Shown: positions 5,957-61,415 of the stretch, in pieces
Layout: every line of letters starts with the position of its first letter
Position numbering within the stretch: the stretch's first letter is position 1
Assembly: GCA_028866995.1 (NCBI GenBank)
Contig: JAGWHD010000001.1
Coordinates: 337,030-401,029, forward strand
Origin: Candidatus Micrarchaeota archaeon
GTDB taxonomy: Archaea > Micrarchaeota > Micrarchaeia > Micrarchaeales > CABMGC01
DNA: 64,000 bases
Direction: 5' to 3'
Notes under the pieces: model-generated
Seen by the model: only the letters and a program-made list of their open reading frames with translations
Databases searched by the model: none
What the model was told of the DNA's origin: nothing
Made by a program: the position numbers and the translations under genes

Positions 5957-6087
5957 GCGGATCTTTTGTTTGCTCGTTTTACCTTGGTGTGTAGTATTTT
6001 GCGTTTCGTTTATATATTTTATATCGCAATGTTATTTTGAAAGTGAATCAAATGGCAAAGAAAAAGAAGGCCAAGAGGAAGGCCCAC

Positions 6088-6142
6088 AAAAAAGGGAAAA
6101 AGAAGAGGTAAAGGGATTGGTTTTTGTTTTTTTCTTTTTCCC
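6088..6142 (-). terminator. Hairpin plus oligo-U tract directly after srp54
   Basis: GGGAAAAAGAA (6094-6104) is the exact reverse complement of TTCTTTTTCCC (6132-6142). On the minus strand the hairpin is followed by TTTTTT (6093-6088). It starts 12 nt after the srp54 stop. Confidence 0.5.
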
Positions 6143-6153
6143 CTTTTTCTTTT

Positions 6154-7458
6154 TCACATTCCTGGCATGAACTTCGACATGTTCTTCTTCAGGTCGCGGT
6201 TGTTCTTGAACATCGTAGCGAACTTCTTCATCCTGTTGAAGTCGCTTATGAGCTCCCTCACGTCTTTCTCGGTGGTTCCGCTGCCCTTCGCTATCCTCGC
6301 TATCCTGCTGTGCTCCTTGACAAGCCTGTCGCTGTTCCTCTCCTCCTTCGTCATAGAGCTTATTATCGACCCGTATTTCTTCAGCTTGGTCTCTCCGGTA
6401 TCCAGAACGTCCTTGGGCACGTCGGCCATGCCCATCATCCCCAGTATGCTCTTCATCGGGCCGACGTTCTGCATGGCCTTGAGCTGCTTGTAGAAGGTGT
6501 CGAAGCTGAGGTTGCTGATGTCGGCCTCTTCCTCCTTTATGTTAGCGCTCTTTACAGCTTCCTGCACCTTTAGCACCAAGGACTCTAGGTCTGGCATGCC
6601 GAGCAGCCTTCCGACGAACTTCTTCGAGTCGTAGGGCTCAAGCGCGTTGAGCTTCTCTCCAGTGCCTATGAACGTTATTCTCGTCTTGGACGCGGCCACT
6701 GCGCTGAGGGCGCCTCCTCCCTTCCCCGAACCGTCCAGCTTGGTGACTATGACCCCTGTCAGCTTTATCCTGCTATCGAACTCCGCTGCCTGCTTGCCCG
6801 CTACCTGCCCTATGTCCGCGTTTATGACAAGCATCTTCTCGTCTGGCCTGAACTCGTCGTTTATGAGCTTCAGCTCCTTGGCCAGCTCAGCATCCATCGC
6901 GTTCCTGCCCCCGGAGTCGCATATTATGACCTTGCGGCTCTTCAGCTCGTTGAGCCCTTCCCTTACCAGCTTCTTTACGTCCTTTTCCTCCTTCCTTCCG
7001 AAGAACGAGACATTAGACTGCTTTGCAAGCGTCTCAAGCTGCTCGAAGGCTGCGGGTCTCGAGACGTCGCAGCATATAAGCCCTACGCTGAGCCCCCTGT
7101 CCTGGTAGAACTTGGCGAGTTTCGCCGCGGTGGTGGTCTTACCTGACCCGTATATTCCGACAAGCAGGATCCTCTTCGGCGCTATCTCCGGGGCATAGGA
7201 CTCGCCCATCATCTTTACGAGCTCCTCGTAGACCATGTTGGTGATGTAGTCCTTGGGGGTTATCCCCTGCGGCAGCTTCTCCTTAAGCGCAGCGTCCTCT
7301 ATGCGCTTGGTGAAGGAGAGTACCAGGTTTATGTCCACGTCTGACGATATAAGCGCCTTCTGGAGCTCCTTGGTGAATTCCTTGATGGCCTTGGCGTCTA
7401 TTATCGTGGCTCCGCTAAGCCTTGCTATAGCCTTCCTTAGCCCTTCTCCTAGATCCAT
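6154..7458 (-). CDS. srp54: Signal recognition particle protein SRP54
   Basis: Start taken at MDLGEGLRKAIARLSG (aa 46 of the track ORF). G-domain GIYGSGKTTTAAKLA and TKLDGSGKGGGALS. Met-rich M domain (GMMGMADVP). Confidence 0.95.
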   Translation of the reverse strand: MDLGEGLRKAIARLSGATIIDAKAIKEFTKELQKALISSDVDINLVLSFTKRIEDAALKEKLPQGITPKDYITNMVYEELVKMMGESYAPEIAPKRILLVGIYGSGKTTTAAKLAKFYQDRGLSVGLICCDVSRPAAFEQLETLAKQSNVSFFGRKEEKDVKKLVREGLNELKSRKVIICDSGGRNAMDAELAKELKLINDEFRPDEKMLVINADIGQVAGKQAAEFDSRIKLTGVIVTKLDGSGKGGGALSAVAASKTRITFIGTGEKLNALEPYDSKKFVGRLLGMPDLESLVLKVQEAVKSANIKEEEADISNLSFDTFYKQLKAMQNVGPMKSILGMMGMADVPKDVLDTGETKLKKYGSIISSMTKEERNSDRLVKEHSRIARIAKGSGTTEKDVRELISDFNRMKKFATMFKNNRDLKKNMSKFMPGM

Positions 7459-7548: not shown

Positions 7549-7654
7549 GGGCTCATAGCTCAGCCTGGTCAGAGCGCCGGTCTTATACTTCAAGTTTCAA
7601 TTGAAGCTTGGATACGATAGCCGGATGTCGTGAGTTCAAATCTCACTGGGCCCA
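7549..7654 (+). tRNA. tRNA-Ile, anticodon TAT (UAU), with 31-nt intron at the canonical 37/38 site
   Basis: Acceptor GGGCTCA/TGGGCCC, D-arm GCTC-AGCCTGGTCA-GAGC, anticodon stem CCGGT/GCCGG, T-arm GTGAG-TTCAAAT-CTCAC, discriminator A. Spliced loop is CTTATAA. Mature length is 75 nt. Confidence 0.8.
7588..7618 (+). other. tRNA-Ile intron (bulge-helix-bulge)
   Basis: Central helix CTTA (7582-85)/TACG (7613-16) has one T-C mismatch. The 3-nt bulges are TA|C and AT|A. The inner helix is 6 bp, TTCAAG (7589-94)/CTTGGA (7607-12). Confidence 0.65.
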
Positions 7655-24771: not shown

Positions 24772-25299
24772 TCAGGTATAGACAGTTGAGACTATCAGCA
24801 CCCTCTGCGTCTGCGGCACGTAGTTCTGTATCGTGTAGTTGATCCAGACGTATCCTGAGAACGGTGTGCCTTGCGGGTATTTGGCTACTCCTGATGCGTC
24901 GTAGCAGTACATGTATAGTATGGTGAAGTTGTCGCTGTACATGACCCTGCCACCTGGCTGCTTGCCGCTGGGATAGAAGGATGCCCCGTTGGTCGTGAAT
25001 ATGTTCCCGTACTTAGGACCTGTGCCGGTATCGTTCTGCGTTGTCGAGCATGATGCGCCGTTTATCGTGATCTGCGATCCTATCGCCTGCGACAGCCTGA
25101 CAACAAGGATGCCACCGGTAGTGTTTATGGAATCGTATTCGCACCCGAAGCCTGGATTGGGAGTGCAGTAGGGTGTTGCGAGCACAGTGCTCGTGGTCGC
25201 TATCTTGTATATTATGGCTATCGAGATTAGGATTATGATTATTCCCATGCCGTACGAGGCCATGAAGTCTACTGATGACTGCAGCTTTAGTGGCTTCAT
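24772..25299 (-). CDS. Pilin-like protein with class III (type IV prepilin-like) signal peptide
   Basis: 175 aa. MKPLKLQSSVDFMASYGMGIIIILISIAIIY (charged n-region, Q-x-S-x-D/E, hydrophobic core). Several sequons. Confidence 0.65.
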   Translation of the reverse strand: MKPLKLQSSVDFMASYGMGIIIILISIAIIYKIATTSTVLATPYCTPNPGFGCEYDSINTTGGILVVRLSQAIGSQITINGASCSTTQNDTGTGPKYGNIFTTNGASFYPSGKQPGGRVMYSDNFTILYMYCYDASGVAKYPQGTPFSGYVWINYTIQNYVPQTQRVLIVSTVYT

Positions 25300-26841: not shown

Positions 26842-26930
26842 CGGGGTCGCCGAGATTTTCATATGCCTATTTTGAACTCGGGTCTTATGCTCCCTAAGCA
26901 CAGAGCCTAACCAGACTAGCAGACGACCCC
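26842..26930 (-). tRNA. tRNA, Pro-like (anticodon AGG as read), with a 15-nt intron in the T-loop (59/60)
   Basis: Acceptor GGGGTCG/CGACCCC (7 WC bp), D-loop AGTCTGGTTA, anticodon stem TGTGC/GCATA, loop TTAGGGA, variable AGAC, T-stem CCGAG/CTCGG enclosing 22 nt that reduce to TTCAAAT after BHB excision. Confidence 0.7.
26856..26870 (-). other. Non-canonical tRNA intron in the T-loop
   Basis: TTCA (26876-73) pairs with TGAA (26861-58), flanked by 3-nt bulges AAA and AAT on opposite strands. The outer helix is the T-stem. The exact boundary is ambiguous within the A-run. Confidence 0.6.
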
Positions 26931-39361: not shown

Positions 39362-39640
39362 TTACTTGTATAGGTCCTCCGCTTCCTCCTTCGGTATCTC
39401 CTGGCTTCCTGGAGGCGGGGAGCTCACCAGAACGACGTCTCCTACGTTCTTGACGCTCTTGTACAGTATCGACTTCTTCCTCAATGCGGTCCTTGCGTCT
39501 CCCTTTACGCTCTTCCACGGGACCATGAGCAGCCTGCTTATCTCTCCCTTCTCGAGATCTATTATCACGTCCTGCACCTCTCCCAAATATTGACCGCCAT
39601 CGCTGTAGATGTCCATGCGGTAAATCTCTGAAATCTTCAT
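39362..39640 (-). CDS. PRC-barrel domain protein
   Basis: 92 aa. Y..DG..LG.V.DVIIDLEKGEI..LL pattern. Confidence 0.7.
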   Translation of the reverse strand: MKISEIYRMDIYSDGGQYLGEVQDVIIDLEKGEISRLLMVPWKSVKGDARTALRKKSILYKSVKNVGDVVLVSSPPPGSQEIPKEEAEDLYK

Positions 39641-39705
39641 ACAATCGCCTGAATTATATTAGCTGGTAGAGCATTTATAAATCTTATCGCATAGACCTCG
39701 TCGGT

Positions 39706-40863
39706 TCATGGCTGCATCCAGTCTATCTCGTAGTACTCGTTCCTGCTGTTCGCCAGCCTTATCTGCCTTATCCTGTAGTACGTGACTGCGGTTTCCCTGT
39801 CGGCTATGGCCATAACCAGCTCTAGCCTTCTTCTCTTGGCCTCTGCAATCGCGCCTGCGAACTCCCTGCCGCCTATGTACTCGTCCTCGCTGAGCGAGAG
39901 CATCCCGTACCTTGGAGTCGCTGTCTTGGGATTCTCGGCCTCTCCGCCCCTCCTGTGGAAAAGGACATAGTCTATGCCTACCTTCTGTGCGGGGAGGTTG
40001 CCAGGAACAGCGAGTATGAACGTCTTTCTTACTGAATGCGCGACCCTGATTGCCCTGGCCCATTCCGATATGAGGAGCCTTGATTCCTTTGGGAATACGT
40101 GGATCACGTGCTTCGAGTGTATCCTTTCTGTACTTCCTGCGGTCATCGGCCTTGCCCCTGGGAAGTACACCCTGAAATGGGTGCCGAACTTGAAGCCTGT
40201 CTTGATTACATAGCCTCTGTCCCTCCAGTCCCTGTAGACCTCATACAGCCTGTCGAAGTCCCTTCTCCTTGCCCTGGCCGTCCTCCTTATCGATAGAGGC
40301 GTTGTGCTGAGCGGCCTGAGGATGCGCTTGTCCATCAGGTACAGCGTCTCGAATATGTCGAGCTTGTTGAGCTGCCCCCTGTCCTGGGCCTTGTAGGAGC
40401 CATACTGGCCGAGCCATAGGCTTTCGTACAGCTGTTTGCCTTTATCCTTGTCGCCTATTATGGAGACCATGTCGCTGTTGAAGAACGTGCACGTGAGCTT
40501 GTACTTGGGCAGTTTTATCCTTGATCCTGGATACGACTTCACAGGCGTCTTGTTGGCGGTGCTGCGGACCGGGCCTGGCCGGCGTATGACCAGTCCCCTG
40601 TCCCTCCAGTCCCTATATGTCAGGTACTTGGCCATGAACTTGCCGGATTTCGAGAAGCCTGAAGCAAGCTCATCGAAGGGCATGCTCCTGCCGTTGTGGG
40701 TGCATTCCGCATTCCTGACATCCATCAGGTACAGCGCCTCTTCCGGAGAGAGCCTGAGCGACTTCCCCTCGTCGTCCCCGAAGAAGCCCTTGCCAAGTAT
40801 GTCCTTTGTCGACTGATCAACTGCCGTTATCCTGTTTTTGGAGGCGAAATCTATCTGCAGCAA
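39706..40863 (-). CDS. endA: tRNA-splicing endonuclease, long three-unit form
   Basis: 385 aa. Catalytic unit YRDWRDRGYVIKTGFKFGTHFRVY...HSKHVIHV...SVRK (Y/H/K), preceded by a degenerate copy (EEALYLMD...YRDWRDRGLVIRR) and followed by an extra C-terminal-type domain (YGMLSLSEDEYIGG...AIADRETAVTYYRI). Confidence 0.88.
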   Translation of the reverse strand: MLQIDFASKNRITAVDQSTKDILGKGFFGDDEGKSLRLSPEEALYLMDVRNAECTHNGRSMPFDELASGFSKSGKFMAKYLTYRDWRDRGLVIRRPGPVRSTANKTPVKSYPGSRIKLPKYKLTCTFFNSDMVSIIGDKDKGKQLYESLWLGQYGSYKAQDRGQLNKLDIFETLYLMDKRILRPLSTTPLSIRRTARARRRDFDRLYEVYRDWRDRGYVIKTGFKFGTHFRVYFPGARPMTAGSTERIHSKHVIHVFPKESRLLISEWARAIRVAHSVRKTFILAVPGNLPAQKVGIDYVLFHRRGGEAENPKTATPRYGMLSLSEDEYIGGREFAGAIAEAKRRRLELVMAIADRETAVTYYRIRQIRLANSRNEYYEIDWMQP

Positions 40864-40923
40864 GCAAGCACCAGCTTATCGTAATTGCACATGTTATAAA
40901 TAAATTGTATCTTTAATGTTGTT

Positions 40924-56541: not shown

Positions 56542-59298
56542 CTACTTCCAGTACTTCCTGTTCTTCACGAAGCTCTTCTGCGCCTCAAGTATGTCGACGA
56601 AGAACATCTTGTAGTCCTTCCTGACGAACTTCAGTATCCTGGACGCTGTCTCAAGGCCTATGCCGTAGGTCGAGAGCGCTATGAGCGCCCTGTCCCCGTA
56701 TGAGCTGACCAATGACGATTCCCTTATCACGTCAGCGTAAACCTTCCTTTCGCTTGGTGTCAGCGCCTTATTCCCAAGCCTCTTCTTCACAGCGGCATTG
56801 TATGAATCCTTGTACCTCACAACCATCGGGCTCCCGCAGAACCCGCACAATATCCTTCTCTCAGGATCGTCGCTGATCTTGTTGTGGAACGACAGGCCGC
56901 AGAAGGTGCAGAGCATCATAATGTCCTTGCCCTTGCTCTCCTCAAGGAGCCTGTTTATGGCATCGTCCTTGCCGTACCCCTGCGAAAGGAACTCCGAATT
57001 CGAGTACACGGAACGCAGCAGCTCCTGCGATATCGGCGATCCCGCCTTGCGCGCAAACTCGATTGATATGCCGCCTTCATTGAGCCCTTTTACGAAATGC
57101 GCCACAGCTGCCTCGTCAATGTAGTTCTTCCTCACGTCTCTGAGAACGTCGTCGAAGACTATGGACTCCTTGTAGAAGTTGACGATTCTTGTTGCCGTGC
57201 TCCTCGTGACGTCAGAGTCCTTGCTTATGATTCCTATCGCCTTCGCCGTCTGCACGAACTTGTACCTGAACAGGTCAGTGCCTGTTATGAAGCTCCTGTA
57301 CTCAGCGTGCTTAATCCCTGAAAGCCTCTCGAAAAGCCTTTTCATGTTGGGTTTTCTGGCCGACATGCTGCAGTCTATAATCACGGCGTACGGCGTCGGC
57401 TTGCAATTTATTTTAGACCCGGTGTCCCACGAGGCCAAGGTGCCTATGATCTTCGACAGGAGGCTGTTAGCTAGGGTGCCTAGCGCAGCGTAGACTATTA
57501 TGTAGTCGTCGAGGTCCTCAACCACCACGGAACCGTTGCTTATCCTGAAGAAGTCCCTCTGCGCGTCGACCAGTTTAGATGCCCCGGCAAACGCCTGCCT
57601 GTCCATTATCTTCTCATGCCCCGAGACCCCAAGGTCAAATATATCGAATACGGACCTTGCTATCTCGTGCGGCACCGGAAGGTCTTCTCCCTCCCAATCC
57701 GGCACCGACGCGGATATGTCGGTGCTGTATTCAACGAATATGGTGGCGCCCTCTATGCTCACCACCTTCCACGCGACGCCCTTGGTGATGAACGAGGCTC
57801 CCTCCTCAACGTAGTTGTACACGAATTCCTCGTCGAGCACCGATATTATCCTGTTGCTCTCAAGTATCTTGACAGTAAATTTCCTCGTGTCTGGTATGAG
57901 GCTTATGTTGCTGAAGAAGTAGTCCCTGCTCCTCGCACCGAGCCCTATCTCTCCATCAACAACCTTCACCAGCTTCAGGTCTGTTGCCAGCCCAACCGCC
58001 TTGTCGAAGAGCTGCCTATCCAGAGCCATGTAGGGAGCTGCCCTCCTGAACATGGCATAGGCCTTCTCGACGCTTATTTTCCTGTACTCCAAGGCGACGG
58101 CGCATACCTGGTTGACAAGCACATCAACAGCATTCTCCTCGATCCTTCCGGTCTCCAGTCTTCCCGAGTGCACCGCTTCTACCACAGCAGCAGATTCAAG
58201 GCACTCAAGCGCGTTGGACACCATCACGATTCCGTTTGACACGCCCTTCTCGGTGTGGCCGCCTCTTCCGATCCTCTGTATCAGCCTGGCCGCCTGCCTC
58301 GGAGAGCTGTACTGTATCACAAGGTTTATGCTGCCTATGTCTATGCCTAGCTCGAGCGAGCTCGTGGCTATCAGGCCCTTGACCTTCTTCTCCTTGAACT
58401 GCCTCTCCACCACAACCCTCTCGTGCCTGTCTATCGAGCTGTGATGCACCCCTATCGAACCGAAGGGATGCAGCCTGTCGTAGTAGAGGAGCTTGCTGCC
58501 CAGGGACTCAACAACCTGCCTTGTATTGCCGAAGATGAGCGTCTCTTCGGCCCCGCCCACCAGTTCGGCTATCCGCTCCAGCCTGGCAAGCGCCGGCTTG
58601 TCGAGGTGGAATACCTTCGTGAACTCAGGGTCGTTCACAAGCGGCTTCTCAGGCATCTCTATGCCTACGCTGATCCTCTTGACGTTGACAGATCTTGCTA
58701 TTGAATGCTCCTCTCCGGCGAACAGGAACCTGCCAACCTCATCTGCGTTGCCTACTGTTGCGCTTATCCCCACCCTCTGGAAGCTGCCGCACAGCTCCCT
58801 CAGCCTCTCAAGGGCAACAGAAAGCTGCGCACCCCGCTTGTTCGAGTAGAGCTCGTGTATCTCGTCTACTATCACCGCCTTGACGTTGGAGAGGCTGCTC
58901 CTGAGCCTCTGCGATAGGAAAAGGTTCTGCAGCGTCTCCGGTGTCGTTATCAGTATCTGGGGAGGCGATGCCGCCTGCCTCCTCCTCTCGCTCTGCTCCG
59001 TGTCCCCGTGCCTGACCCCTATGGTTATGCCAGATGCGTTGCAGATCCATTCCAGCCTGGATATAAGGTCCCTGTTCAGCGCCCTCAGCGGCGTTATGTA
59101 GATGAGGGCGATGCCGTTCCATCTCCTTTCGGATATGTTCTTGAGAACCGGCAGCACCGCAGCCTCCGTTTTGCCGCTGCCCGTAGGGGCCATTATCAGG
59201 CAGTGCTTTCCCTGCTCGACTATCTCTATGGCTCTTTTTTGTATGTCGGTGAAGCTCCCGAACCTATTCAAGAAAAGGCTGTAAGGGCCTCCTTCCAT
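56542..59298 (-). CDS. lhr: Lhr-type large superfamily-2 helicase
   Basis: 918 aa. Motif I APTGSGKTEAA, motif II DEIHEL, QRIGRGGH, C-terminal Cys4 element (CTFCG...CGFCG). Confidence 0.9.
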   Translation of the reverse strand: MEGGPYSLFLNRFGSFTDIQKRAIEIVEQGKHCLIMAPTGSGKTEAAVLPVLKNISERRWNGIALIYITPLRALNRDLISRLEWICNASGITIGVRHGDTEQSERRRQAASPPQILITTPETLQNLFLSQRLRSSLSNVKAVIVDEIHELYSNKRGAQLSVALERLRELCGSFQRVGISATVGNADEVGRFLFAGEEHSIARSVNVKRISVGIEMPEKPLVNDPEFTKVFHLDKPALARLERIAELVGGAEETLIFGNTRQVVESLGSKLLYYDRLHPFGSIGVHHSSIDRHERVVVERQFKEKKVKGLIATSSLELGIDIGSINLVIQYSSPRQAARLIQRIGRGGHTEKGVSNGIVMVSNALECLESAAVVEAVHSGRLETGRIEENAVDVLVNQVCAVALEYRKISVEKAYAMFRRAAPYMALDRQLFDKAVGLATDLKLVKVVDGEIGLGARSRDYFFSNISLIPDTRKFTVKILESNRIISVLDEEFVYNYVEEGASFITKGVAWKVVSIEGATIFVEYSTDISASVPDWEGEDLPVPHEIARSVFDIFDLGVSGHEKIMDRQAFAGASKLVDAQRDFFRISNGSVVVEDLDDYIIVYAALGTLANSLLSKIIGTLASWDTGSKINCKPTPYAVIIDCSMSARKPNMKRLFERLSGIKHAEYRSFITGTDLFRYKFVQTAKAIGIISKDSDVTRSTATRIVNFYKESIVFDDVLRDVRKNYIDEAAVAHFVKGLNEGGISIEFARKAGSPISQELLRSVYSNSEFLSQGYGKDDAINRLLEESKGKDIMMLCTFCGLSFHNKISDDPERRILCGFCGSPMVVRYKDSYNAAVKKRLGNKALTPSERKVYADVIRESSLVSSYGDRALIALSTYGIGLETASRILKFVRKDYKMFFVDILEAQKSFVKNRKYWK

Positions 59299-59307
59299 CT
59301 TTACAAC

Positions 59308-60942
59308 TCAGATGATATAAGCGGTCCCGTTCACCATCTGCGTCCTGTTCTGTATTGTCATGTTGATGGGCAAGTGCAACAAGAGGTTCAGCGGCACTCC
59401 GACTATAGGCCCACCATTTTCATAACAGGCGACGCTTATGTGTGCCGTCGCGTTCGGCGCCAACGTCAGGTTCAGTTTCTTCGAAACACCACTGCCGTGC
59501 CAGTAGCAGCCAGCACTTCCTATCCCAACGGTTCCTGTGCCTGTGTAGTTGTTTATCAGGTCGAAGCCTATCGTGCTGTTCTCGAAGGTGACGTTAAAGC
59601 AGCCTATGGTGACATTTAGCACGCAAGCGTTCCTGAGACCCGACAGGAATTCGGTTGAGTTGCCGCTCAGGTTGAAGCTCTTTATCAATGCGGCGTTTAG
59701 CCCGACCTGGCTGAGTATCCTTGAAGAGTTTATCAGCGCCACCGCGCTTGCGTTCAACTGGCCCTTGTAGACCTTGGTGCTTATCAGCGACAGCGGCGGC
59801 GTAGAGCCGAACGGCACTCCGGTTGCCAGTACGTACACGCTGCAGTAGCTAGTGCCGTTGAAGTCGTTTATTATGCCGAGGCACACGTCGTTCTGCTGCG
59901 ATGTGCTGTTCTCCTCTATGAACTCAAGCATCGCGCTGCCGTTGAGAAGGAACATCCTTCCGGAGCTGTGGTAGTTTCCCGAAACAGAGCTGAAGTTTGC
60001 GACCACGGGCCCGTAATATGTGGGCAGCTTGTCTATGAACGCGCTCTCAATGCTGGAGTTGAGGTTCTGCGAGGCGCTGGAAGGTATCATCTTGGTGCAG
60101 TTCATCGACCCTGATGTTCCAAGCAGTTTCAGCCAGCCTCCTTCGTACCAGCTGCACAGCTCGGTGCTGTTGTCCAGCTGCACCAGCGTGACGTTCTCAC
60201 CGTTAAGCGTTAAGTTTGCAGACGCTATCGCCTTGCCTTGGGCCAACGTCCTGATTATGCCCGGAGACAGGTATCCCTGGATCCAGATAGAATACACAGC
60301 GCCGTTGCTGTATGTCCCGTACGCGCCGCTTATCCTCTTTATGTAGCTACCCGCAACGTAAACCATCGGGGTAAGGAACGCGTTCAAAGCCGATGACTTG
60401 GTCAGCGCTACCTTAGACACGCTGTAATTGTTAGCAAGGAGGGCGGATACCAAGGCTCCCTGCGCAGCCATGTCGTAAGAGTCGTAGAAGCTCCCGAACC
60501 TGGGCAGCGCAGCGTATGGAGTCGCGTTCTCGGCCGGCAGCACCGTGAAGCTAGTGGAATAGACTGTTGACTGCCTGTTGCCTATGTTGTACAGCCTGTC
60601 CGGGTCTATGGCCGCTGTGAAGTTGTACACTCCGCTCGCAGACGGCGAATAATTGAAGTAGAGAGTGAGCTGCTTGCCCGCCGGCAGCGTGATGCTGTAT
60701 ATCGTTGTCGTGTTGCCGTTGAGCGTGAAGCCCAGGCTCACGTTCTTCAGCGCCGATGAACCGACATTGTTGACCTGCACCGGTATCTGCAGCCTCTGGT
60801 AGGCGAAGATCGTTTGGGCAGAGTAGTTCTGCGGCGCGCCCACGTGCACCAGCAGCGTAGGCTGGTAGAACAGCCTGTAGTACAACGCACCTGCCGCAAC
60901 CGCCACGAATACAGCTATCCACAAATATGTCTCCTTGTTCAT
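59308..60942 (-). CDS. N-terminally anchored surface protein with CARDB-like domain and very high N-glycosylation sequon density
   Basis: 544 aa. TM YLWIAVFVAVAAGALYY. CARDB-like IPVQVNNVGSSALKNVSL...YNFTAAIDPD. About 29 N-x-S/T sequons by my count. Confidence 0.65.
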   Translation of the reverse strand: MNKETYLWIAVFVAVAAGALYYRLFYQPTLLVHVGAPQNYSAQTIFAYQRLQIPVQVNNVGSSALKNVSLGFTLNGNTTTIYSITLPAGKQLTLYFNYSPSASGVYNFTAAIDPDRLYNIGNRQSTVYSTSFTVLPAENATPYAALPRFGSFYDSYDMAAQGALVSALLANNYSVSKVALTKSSALNAFLTPMVYVAGSYIKRISGAYGTYSNGAVYSIWIQGYLSPGIIRTLAQGKAIASANLTLNGENVTLVQLDNSTELCSWYEGGWLKLLGTSGSMNCTKMIPSSASQNLNSSIESAFIDKLPTYYGPVVANFSSVSGNYHSSGRMFLLNGSAMLEFIEENSTSQQNDVCLGIINDFNGTSYCSVYVLATGVPFGSTPPLSLISTKVYKGQLNASAVALINSSRILSQVGLNAALIKSFNLSGNSTEFLSGLRNACVLNVTIGCFNVTFENSTIGFDLINNYTGTGTVGIGSAGCYWHGSGVSKKLNLTLAPNATAHISVACYENGGPIVGVPLNLLLHLPINMTIQNRTQMVNGTAYII

Positions 60943-61415
60943 TCAACAACACCGTAGTTCTTGGACTTGAGTTCCTTCAGCACCTCAGTGACCTTGGTTC
61001 CGACATCCCTGTATTTCGACTCGAAGAAGCTGTTTATCCAGTTAGCAGCGTCGAACCTCTCTCCGACCGCAGGCGGCCTGAAGTAGAACTTACCTTTAGA
61101 GTTCTCCACTATGCCCATCTTCTTCATCCTGAGCAGGTGGTACCTCAGAGTCTTCTCGTTTATCGACTCCCAGTTCTTTCCTATGTAGCCTATCAGCTGC
61201 GGCACCTCCGGGTCCACGTTCTTCGTGAACTGGAAGTAGACGAGCGCGTCAAGCACCGAGAGCGAGCTGAGCCTCGACTCTCCGGGGTTTATCACGCCCA
61301 ACGAGAGCGCGAGCCACCTTATTATGCTCCTCCTGGTCTCCATGACCTCCTTGCTGAGCCTAAGGTCCCTTATCGTGAATTCGCTCTCTATTAGTGCTGC
61401 CTCGTTTAGCTCCAA
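60939..61415 (-). CDS. Hypothetical winged-helix protein, co-transcribed with the surface protein
   Basis: 158 aa. TLRYHLLRMKKMGIVENSKGKFYF (helix plus wing). 4-nt overlap with the downstream gene. Confidence 0.5.
   Translation of the reverse strand: MELNEAALIESEFTIRDLRLSKEVMETRRSIIRWLALSLGVINPGESRLSSLSVLDALVYFQFTKNVDPEVPQLIGYIGKNWESINEKTLRYHLLRMKKMGIVENSKGKFYFRPPAVGERFDAANWINSFFESKYRDVGTKVTEVLKELKSKNYGVVE

Follow-up and report, generated by a model that had tools for sequence, protein, structure and literature searches.

An ε2-type three-unit tRNA-splicing endonuclease encoded alongside intron-bearing tRNA genes in a Candidatus Micrarchaeota genome

The DNA analyzed here (the window) is a stretch of 64,000 nucleotides (nt) of contig JAGWHD010000001.1, from the assembly GCA_028866995.1 of a Candidatus Micrarchaeota archaeon. 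At 39706–40863 on the minus strand, the open reading frame (ORF) listing of the window shows an uninterrupted frame of 385 amino acids (aa) followed by a stop codon, which is the endA gene for an epsilon (ε)-type tRNA-splicing endonuclease. The TTG start of this gene is the first start codon past an in-frame TAA at 40878–40876, and a TTTATA box read about 32 nt 5′ of it (40895–40900, minus strand) may be an archaeal TATA element from which an endA mRNA with a short leader or none would be transcribed; a scan for sigma-70 promoters and terminators was set aside as uninformative for an archaeon. An identical 385-aa product is deposited in GenBank as MDE1851488.1, under the name ‘MAG: tRNA-intron lyase’ of Candidatus Micrarchaeota archaeon (MAG, metagenome-assembled genome), and is encoded there on a contig of 726,952 bp. 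Two intron-bearing tRNA genes, for tRNA-Ile(UAU) and tRNA-Pro(AGG), lie in the same window. We are highly confident that the endA product is an ordinary member of the described three-unit (ε2) tRNA-splicing endonuclease family of Micrarchaeota (ARMAN); its architecture, its residue conservation and the presence of substrates were established in this analysis, as was its fold, from a predicted model.

Compared with all chains of the Protein Data Bank (PDB) using phmmer, the endA product has a single outstanding end-to-end match, 4fz2_A (also 9w2k), with an E-value of 2.1e-141, in which query residues 9–385 align with residues 11–387 of the chain and 212 of the 376 aligned columns are identical (56%). 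Both entries describe the ε2 tRNA-splicing endonuclease (EndA, also termed VSEN; EET89679) from Candidatus Micrarchaeum acidiphilum ARMAN-2, 4FZ2 as a crystal structure and 9W2K in complex with bulge-helix-bulge (BHB) RNA. The next PDB matches, α′2 enzymes and α or β subunits, have E-values of 1e-25 or weaker and cover the central catalytic unit only. To characterize the fold, a structural model was generated using AlphaFold2 from a 56-sequence family alignment, with a mean predicted local distance difference test (pLDDT) value of 89.1 and a predicted template modelling (pTM) score of 0.85. In a Foldseek search of the PDB, this predicted model superposes on 4fz2_A and 9w2k_B with a template modelling (TM) score of 0.96 and a root-mean-square deviation (rmsd) of 1.6–1.7 Å over about 385 columns. 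The fold that the model predicts is that of an ε protomer: the αN and βC units come together as a single structural unit, and the catalytic unit lies next to it. As expected of the ε2 type, the protein is a single chain in the range of 385–390 aa, colinear over its full length with 4fz2 and arranged in the order αN, linker 1, α, linker 2, βC; its length nearly equals that of the ARMAN-2 enzyme (385 versus 387–390 aa), and its N-terminus is 2–3 residues shorter.

The borders of the units were carried over by pairwise alignment from the crystal-structure definitions of ARMAN-2 EndA (αN 2–97, linker 1 98–125, α 126–288, linker 2 289–300 and βC 301–387; Hirata 2012, PMC3488258), and the units were scanned one by one against Pfam. 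All coordinates of units are on the minus strand. The αN unit (aa 1–94, 40582–40863) contains the N-domain PF02778 (E 1e-9) and just positions 1–19 of the 85-position C-domain profile PF01974; it combines an N-terminal domain with the opening helix and strand of a C-domain, and has no catalytic residues. Linker 1 (aa 95–122, 40498–40581) is the least conserved part relative to ARMAN-2, with 36% identity, and model pLDDT falls to 73–82 there. The α unit (aa 123–286, 40006–40497) is a complete catalytic unit that matches PF02778 and positions 1–76 of PF01974 (E 3e-23) and carries the catalytic Tyr, His and Lys. Within it lies the ARMAN-specific loop (ASL; aa 155–165, 40369–40401), where GSYKAQDRGQL aligns with GTYKVSEHGNL at ARMAN-2 residues 158–168. 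Linker 2 (aa 287–298, 39970–40005) leads into the non-catalytic βC unit (aa 299–385, 39709–39969), which matches positions 25–85 of PF01974 (E 0.002), bears the L10 loop (D355/E357) and W382, and has no catalytic His and Lys; in an alignment to M. jannaschii EndA, these two positions are occupied by Ala and Leu. Because the two C-domain fragments are complementary (positions 1–19 and 25–85), αN and βC together represent one structural unit split around a complete catalytic unit, and this unit order is the published ε topology.

The three units differ in how readily their kinship can be recognized. The αN unit is, as judged from its sequence, a recognizable duplicate of the α unit, with 35% identity over 66 aa (E 2e-7). 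The motif YRDWRDRG is identical in αN (aa 83–93, 40585–40617) and α (aa 210–220, 40204–40236) and marks the internal duplication; this repeat is better kept between units here than in ARMAN-2, where FKDWRDRG faces YKDWRTKG. Pairwise BLASTP of βC against the α unit gave nothing significant (E 2.9), the homology being visible to profiles only. A profile of βC alone, built from 30 sequences, matches the β subunits of P. aerophilum (2zyz_A, E 0.002) and N. equitans (3iey_B, E 0.013), followed by M. jannaschii EndA (E 0.06), and NCBIfam β-subunit models match aa 322–371. By these matches the third segment is a β-subunit-like C-terminal domain. The sequence-only reading, made from the letters of the window and its ORF translations, had divided the protein into three pieces and assigned it to the ε2 type of ARMAN archaea. 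Its pieces (residues 41–95, 170–280 and 297–365) fall inside the αN, α and βC units, and the per-unit Pfam scans agree with its assignment of the first as an N-domain plus the start of a C-domain without catalytic residues, the second as a complete catalytic unit and the third as a non-catalytic C-domain. It had also remarked that 385 aa exceeds the length of two-repeat enzymes, and the solved α′2 enzymes indeed measure 289–315 aa. Its assignment to the ε2 type is borne out by the full-length sequence match, by the fold, and by the ASL and the family-defining residues.

Functional residues were mapped by pairwise alignment to ARMAN-2 EndA, and their invariance was judged in the 56-sequence family alignment; unit borders, residue roles and cleavage position in the ARMAN-2 enzyme are taken from published work (PMC3488258, PMC3239211, PMC12397907). 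The catalytic triad Y236/H251/K282 of ARMAN-2 corresponds to Y233/H249/K280 (codons 40165–40167, 40117–40119 and 40024–40026) and is confined to the central α unit, as αN ends ahead of these positions. S252 corresponds to S250. The clamp on the bulge base, R275/W384 in ARMAN-2, is represented by R273/W382 and is therefore of the Arg+Trp instead of the Arg+Arg kind. In the ASL, Y160/K161 are found as Y157/K158, while the L10 loop residues D357/E359 and the basic pocket residues K228/R234 are retained as D355/E357 and K225/R231, respectively. Each of these residues is invariant in the 56 sequences, and all ten mutagenesis- or structure-defined residues of ARMAN-2 are conserved. Catalytic triad, base clamp, Tyr-Lys pair of the ASL, and L10 loop with its basic pocket are identical to those of ARMAN-2 EndA. 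By homology, and with the residues present and invariant, a homodimer held together via D355/E357 and K225/R231 is predicted.

Five intron-less tRNAs are found in the window by default ARAGORN. A sixth gene, for pre-tRNA-Ile(UAU), spans 106 nt at 7549–7654 on the plus strand and was recovered by the Rfam tRNA model (57.8 bits) and by ARAGORN with the option -i. Assuming a cut after the second bulge nucleotide, its intron comprises 31 nt (7588–7618) at position 37/38, compared with 25 nt in ARMAN-2. The hBHBh′ motif has a 4-bp central helix, C32-U33-U34-A35 against U-A-C-G of the intron, with one U·C mismatch, and an inner helix of 10 bp; the corresponding ARMAN-2 motif is described as strict. 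ARMAN archaea are described as reading AUA codons without TiaS/agmatidine (PMC3239211), and a tRNA-Ile(UAU) gene fits this strategy.

The seventh tRNA gene, for pre-tRNA-Pro(AGG), lies at 26842–26930 on the minus strand. It was found with R2, a covariance model searched with filters off (33 bits, E 1e-6) and built from three window tRNAs of identical architecture; the model was limited to these because MAFFT mis-registered tRNA-Gly and tRNA-Glu. The match contains a 16-nt gap in the T-loop, and an intron of 15 nt (26856–26870) at position 59/60 follows from a cut after the second bulge nucleotide. Read by hand, the motif consists of the T-stem CCGAG/CUCGG, a 4-bp helix UUCA/UGAA and 3-nt bulges AAA and AAU. 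Removal of the intron restores the T-loop UUCAAAU, which is common to every other tRNA of the window, and default ARAGORN calls the spliced 74-mer as tRNA-Pro(AGG) and makes no call on the unspliced 89-mer. In the window itself, this T-loop-intron tRNA was missed by default ARAGORN and by Rfam at both the gathering and E≤1 thresholds. Other registers of the anticodon loop, e.g., Leu-UAG, were rejected, as just three stem pairs remain. ARAGORN with its threshold relaxed (-ps90) gave about 15 extra calls, of which the compact ones at 24962–25097 (plus strand) and 61067–61201 (minus strand) are noise, being located inside long ORFs and having no T-arm. In this gene, the D-stem contains a U·U mismatch and the discriminator base is G73. 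Its anticodon AGG (A34) is unusual for Archaea; tRNA-Pro(AGG) occurs in ARMAN-4 and ARMAN-5, which have α4 EndA, whereas ARMAN-2 has GGG (Fujishima 2011, PMC3239211). Here the A34 tRNA-Pro occurs with an ε2 enzyme.

In vitro, ARMAN-2 EndA cut the introns of pre-tRNA-Ile(UAU) at 37/38 and of pre-tRNA-Cys at 59/60, and ARMAN-2 tRNA-Pro(GGG) also has a 59/60 intron (PMC3239211). Since the ARMAN-2 enzyme cuts the same intron classes, the enzyme and the tRNA genes of the window form a coherent set that mirrors the published system, including the genomic setting of a tRNA-Ile(UAU) with a 37/38 intron and T-loop introns at 59/60. The sequence-only reading had proposed such a set from the co-occurrence of a T-loop intron and a mismatched BHB motif with the enzyme, and both the 59/60 intron of tRNA-Pro and the U·C-mismatched motif of tRNA-Ile were recovered. 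Both pre-tRNAs are likely substrates of the endA product, and cleavage of strict as well as relaxed or non-canonically placed BHB motifs is predicted, given that the window holds the intron classes that ARMAN-2 EndA cuts.

According to the mechanism that we propose from the ARMAN-2 enzyme, two ε protomers would dimerize by insertion of the acidic L10 loop of βC (D355, E357) of each into the basic α-unit pocket (K225, R231) of the other. These salt bridges would position the two α-unit active sites so that each meets one of the two 3-nt bulges in the BHB motif. At each active site, R273 and W382 would clamp the first bulged base, and Y233, H249 and K280 would cleave the bond joining bulge nucleotides two and three, which generates a 2′,3′-cyclic phosphate. 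Y157 and K158 of the ASL are expected to hold the RNA backbone, which would extend cleavage to relaxed motifs and to motifs at non-canonical positions. In the window, the predicted targets are the 37/38 intron of pre-tRNA-Ile(UAU) and the 59/60 intron of pre-tRNA-Pro(AGG) in the T-loop.

Several observations weigh against assigning the full ε2 function to this protein. Dimerization, cleavage chemistry and broad specificity are properties that we infer from experiments on ARMAN-2 EndA, an orthologue of 56% identity. The sole differences among the mapped positions are K241 to R238 and K244 to T241, and the loop at aa 237–245 beside the catalytic His, which is 25% identical to its ARMAN-2 counterpart, is one residue longer and has no lysines. 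On the substrate side, the inner helix of the tRNA-Pro motif has just 2 bp with a GGCA loop, which puts it close to the relaxed BHB class, and the BHB folds are not the minimum free energy structures of the isolated arms (−4.6 versus −6.4 and −13.9 versus −17.4 kcal/mol). Finally, the neighbouring genes examined include neither a ligase nor any other splicing partner cotranscribed with endA.

The divergence of the 237–245 loop and of linker 1 bears on a first alternative, namely that the protein, while built on the ε architecture, has diverged in function or lost its activity, being for example narrowed in its specificity or directed at BHB motifs in rRNA or mRNA instead of the tRNA introns described above. 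Further points in its favor are Phe302, at a position where more than 90% of relatives, and ARMAN-2 EndA itself, have Tyr, and the fact that the activity of the endA product is a prediction. However, the catalytic, RNA-clamp, ASL and dimer-interface residues are all intact and invariant, and the divergent lysines K241 and K244 are dispensable in ARMAN-2 (PMC3488258). Moreover, the introns of tRNA-Ile and tRNA-Pro in the window call for a splicing endonuclease, and a search covering the window showed no further endA gene. We consider a diverged or inactive copy very unlikely.

A second alternative is a two-repeat α′2 homodimer of the Archaeoglobus/Thermoplasma type with linker insertions, restricted to strict BHB motifs. 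Similarity to such enzymes does exist: NCBIfam two-repeat models (the PRK09300 family) match partially, all far under their cut-offs (138 bits versus 501), and Foldseek retrieves α′2 structures at E-values of 1e-15 to 1e-18. The α′2 enzymes of Euryarchaeota (A. fulgidus 1RLV/2GJW, T. acidophilum 2OHC) also share with the ε2 type the catalytic chemistry, the L10–pocket assembly and the formation of two catalytic and two structural units from a multi-unit homodimer. The structural comparison against other EndA types, which the sequence-only reading had suggested as a check, nevertheless separates them clearly: α′2 structures alone superpose on the model with TM-scores of 0.50–0.55, and the α′2 enzymes (2gjw, 1rlv, 3p1y, 2ohc) together with the fused M. 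kandleri enzyme span 0.43–0.55, with an rmsd of 6–7 Å, against 0.96 for the ε2 structures. Since the scores reach just these values, a standard α2 enzyme with linker insertions was ruled out. In α′2 EndA two complete repeats, each with an N-domain and a full C-domain, stand in tandem within about 290–340 aa, the structural one first, whereas unit 1 of the endA product stops at C-domain position 19 and positions 25–85 come after the catalytic unit, an order found in no α′2 enzyme. Furthermore, α′2 enzymes have an Arg+Arg clamp, lack the ASL and cut strict motifs only, while the protein studied here has Y157/K158 in an ASL and an Arg+Trp clamp. The two-repeat explanation is accordingly held to be highly improbable. 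The sequence-only reading had named two outcomes that would speak against it, a plain α2 enzyme with linker insertions and a lack of kinship between the third segment and the C-domain of EndA; what was found instead is a C-domain split around the catalytic unit, completed by a third segment with matches to PF01974 and to β-subunit profiles.

The resemblance of βC to β subunits calls for a comparison with the (αβ)2 enzymes of Crenarchaeota and Nanoarchaeota (A. pernix 3P1Z/3AJV, P. aerophilum 2ZYZ, N. equitans 3IEY). Broad specificity toward relaxed and non-canonical BHB motifs is expected of both types, and both have an Arg+Trp base clamp, a lysine-bearing specificity loop beside the active site and, at E-values of 0.002–0.013, homologous β C-domains. 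In (αβ)2 EndA, however, α and β are separate polypeptides, while here they are fused and an extra αN unit is present; its specificity loop, CSL, is a different insertion that was gained independently of the ASL (Hirata 2012, PMC3488258). An error of assembly or gene calling that joined separate α and β subunit genes into the 385-aa ORF has a negligible probability: the source is a metagenome-assembled genome and βC is most like the free-standing β subunits of (αβ)2 enzymes, but a single ORF of this kind, 382–406 aa long and with matches spanning residues 1–385, recurs across independent assemblies, in more than 120 database clusters and in no fewer than 80 species-representative genomes, the same fusion was crystallized from ARMAN-2, and the reading frame is uninterrupted.

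The neighbours of endA encode a short-chain dehydrogenase, tRNA-Glu, thymidylate kinase, a PRC-barrel protein, an LPG-synthase-like membrane protein and a TP_methylase-family (diphthine-synthase-like) protein. No functional link to splicing was found among the genes flanking endA, and for this reason endA is regarded as standing alone. The gene for the PRC-barrel protein (92 aa, 39362–39640, minus strand) is located directly downstream on the same strand after a 65-nt gap, and probably has its own promoter, because a TTTATA...TATAAT-like element lies within this gap at 39681–39653. Two weak Rfam matches elsewhere in the window are below gathering thresholds. At 6030–6191 on the minus strand, the RNase P RNA model RF01577 matches with 31 bits (E 0.38), far short of its gathering threshold; either chance or a portion of a divergent RNase P RNA of archaeal type could account for this match. 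The other, at 59280–59341 on the minus strand, to the C/D-box small RNA family sR2 (23.5 bits, E 0.52), may represent a C/D-box guide RNA and shares sequence with one end of a 544-aa ORF (59308–60942, minus strand), at its start.

The distribution of the ε2 enzyme was assessed through database relatives and a scan of species-representative genomes. The protein database contains more than 120 clusters of 380–406 aa with 58–77% identity and full coverage, mostly named Micrarchaeota, and the genome scan gave at least 80 loci with matches covering all or nearly all of residues 1–385. Nearly all of the loci listed carry the label Micrarchaeota, Micrarchaeia or Micrarchaeaceae. A few contigs that also carry a full-length ε EndA have records naming Candidatus Marsarchaeota, a Saccharimonadales bacterium or an Acidiferrales bacterium, and are probably mis-binned or mislabelled Micrarchaeota contigs. 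The ε2 enzyme is plainly the standard EndA of Micrarchaeota, while the reviews consulted still cite just ARMAN-1 and ARMAN-2 for this type. A further-reaching proposal is that the ε2 type is ancestral to and near-universal in Micrarchaeota instead of being confined to ARMAN-1 and ARMAN-2, and that the enzyme of this lineage, with its longer, lysine-free 237–245 loop and a shifted substrate range, co-evolved with its own introns, including the 59/60 intron in an A34 tRNA-Pro(AGG). We regard this as a doubtful possibility; if true, it would add comparative data on the co-evolution of enzyme and introns and no new mechanism.

The enzyme itself is already known, as an orthologue of a structurally and biochemically characterized EndA whose exact sequence is deposited and annotated. 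The ε2 architecture was published in 2011/2012 and the RNA complex in 2025 (Fujishima 2011, PMC3239211; Hirata 2012, PMC3488258; Miyata 2025, PMC12397907). The sole correction to the sequence-only reading therefore concerns significance: the architecture is published and common across Micrarchaeota, and the protein was already in the databases. As the three-unit structure, the ASL-based broad specificity and the co-occurrence with non-canonical tRNA introns have all been reported, the finding has little import beyond correct annotation, in which the generic GenBank name ‘tRNA-intron lyase’ can be refined to the ε2 type. For the organism, the presence of an ε2 enzyme predicts tRNA genes that are missed by standard finders in this genome, as was the case for the T-loop-intron tRNA-Pro. 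Because ARAGORN and Rfam missed that gene, complete tRNA sets of Micrarchaeota metagenome-assembled genomes need BHB-aware searches.

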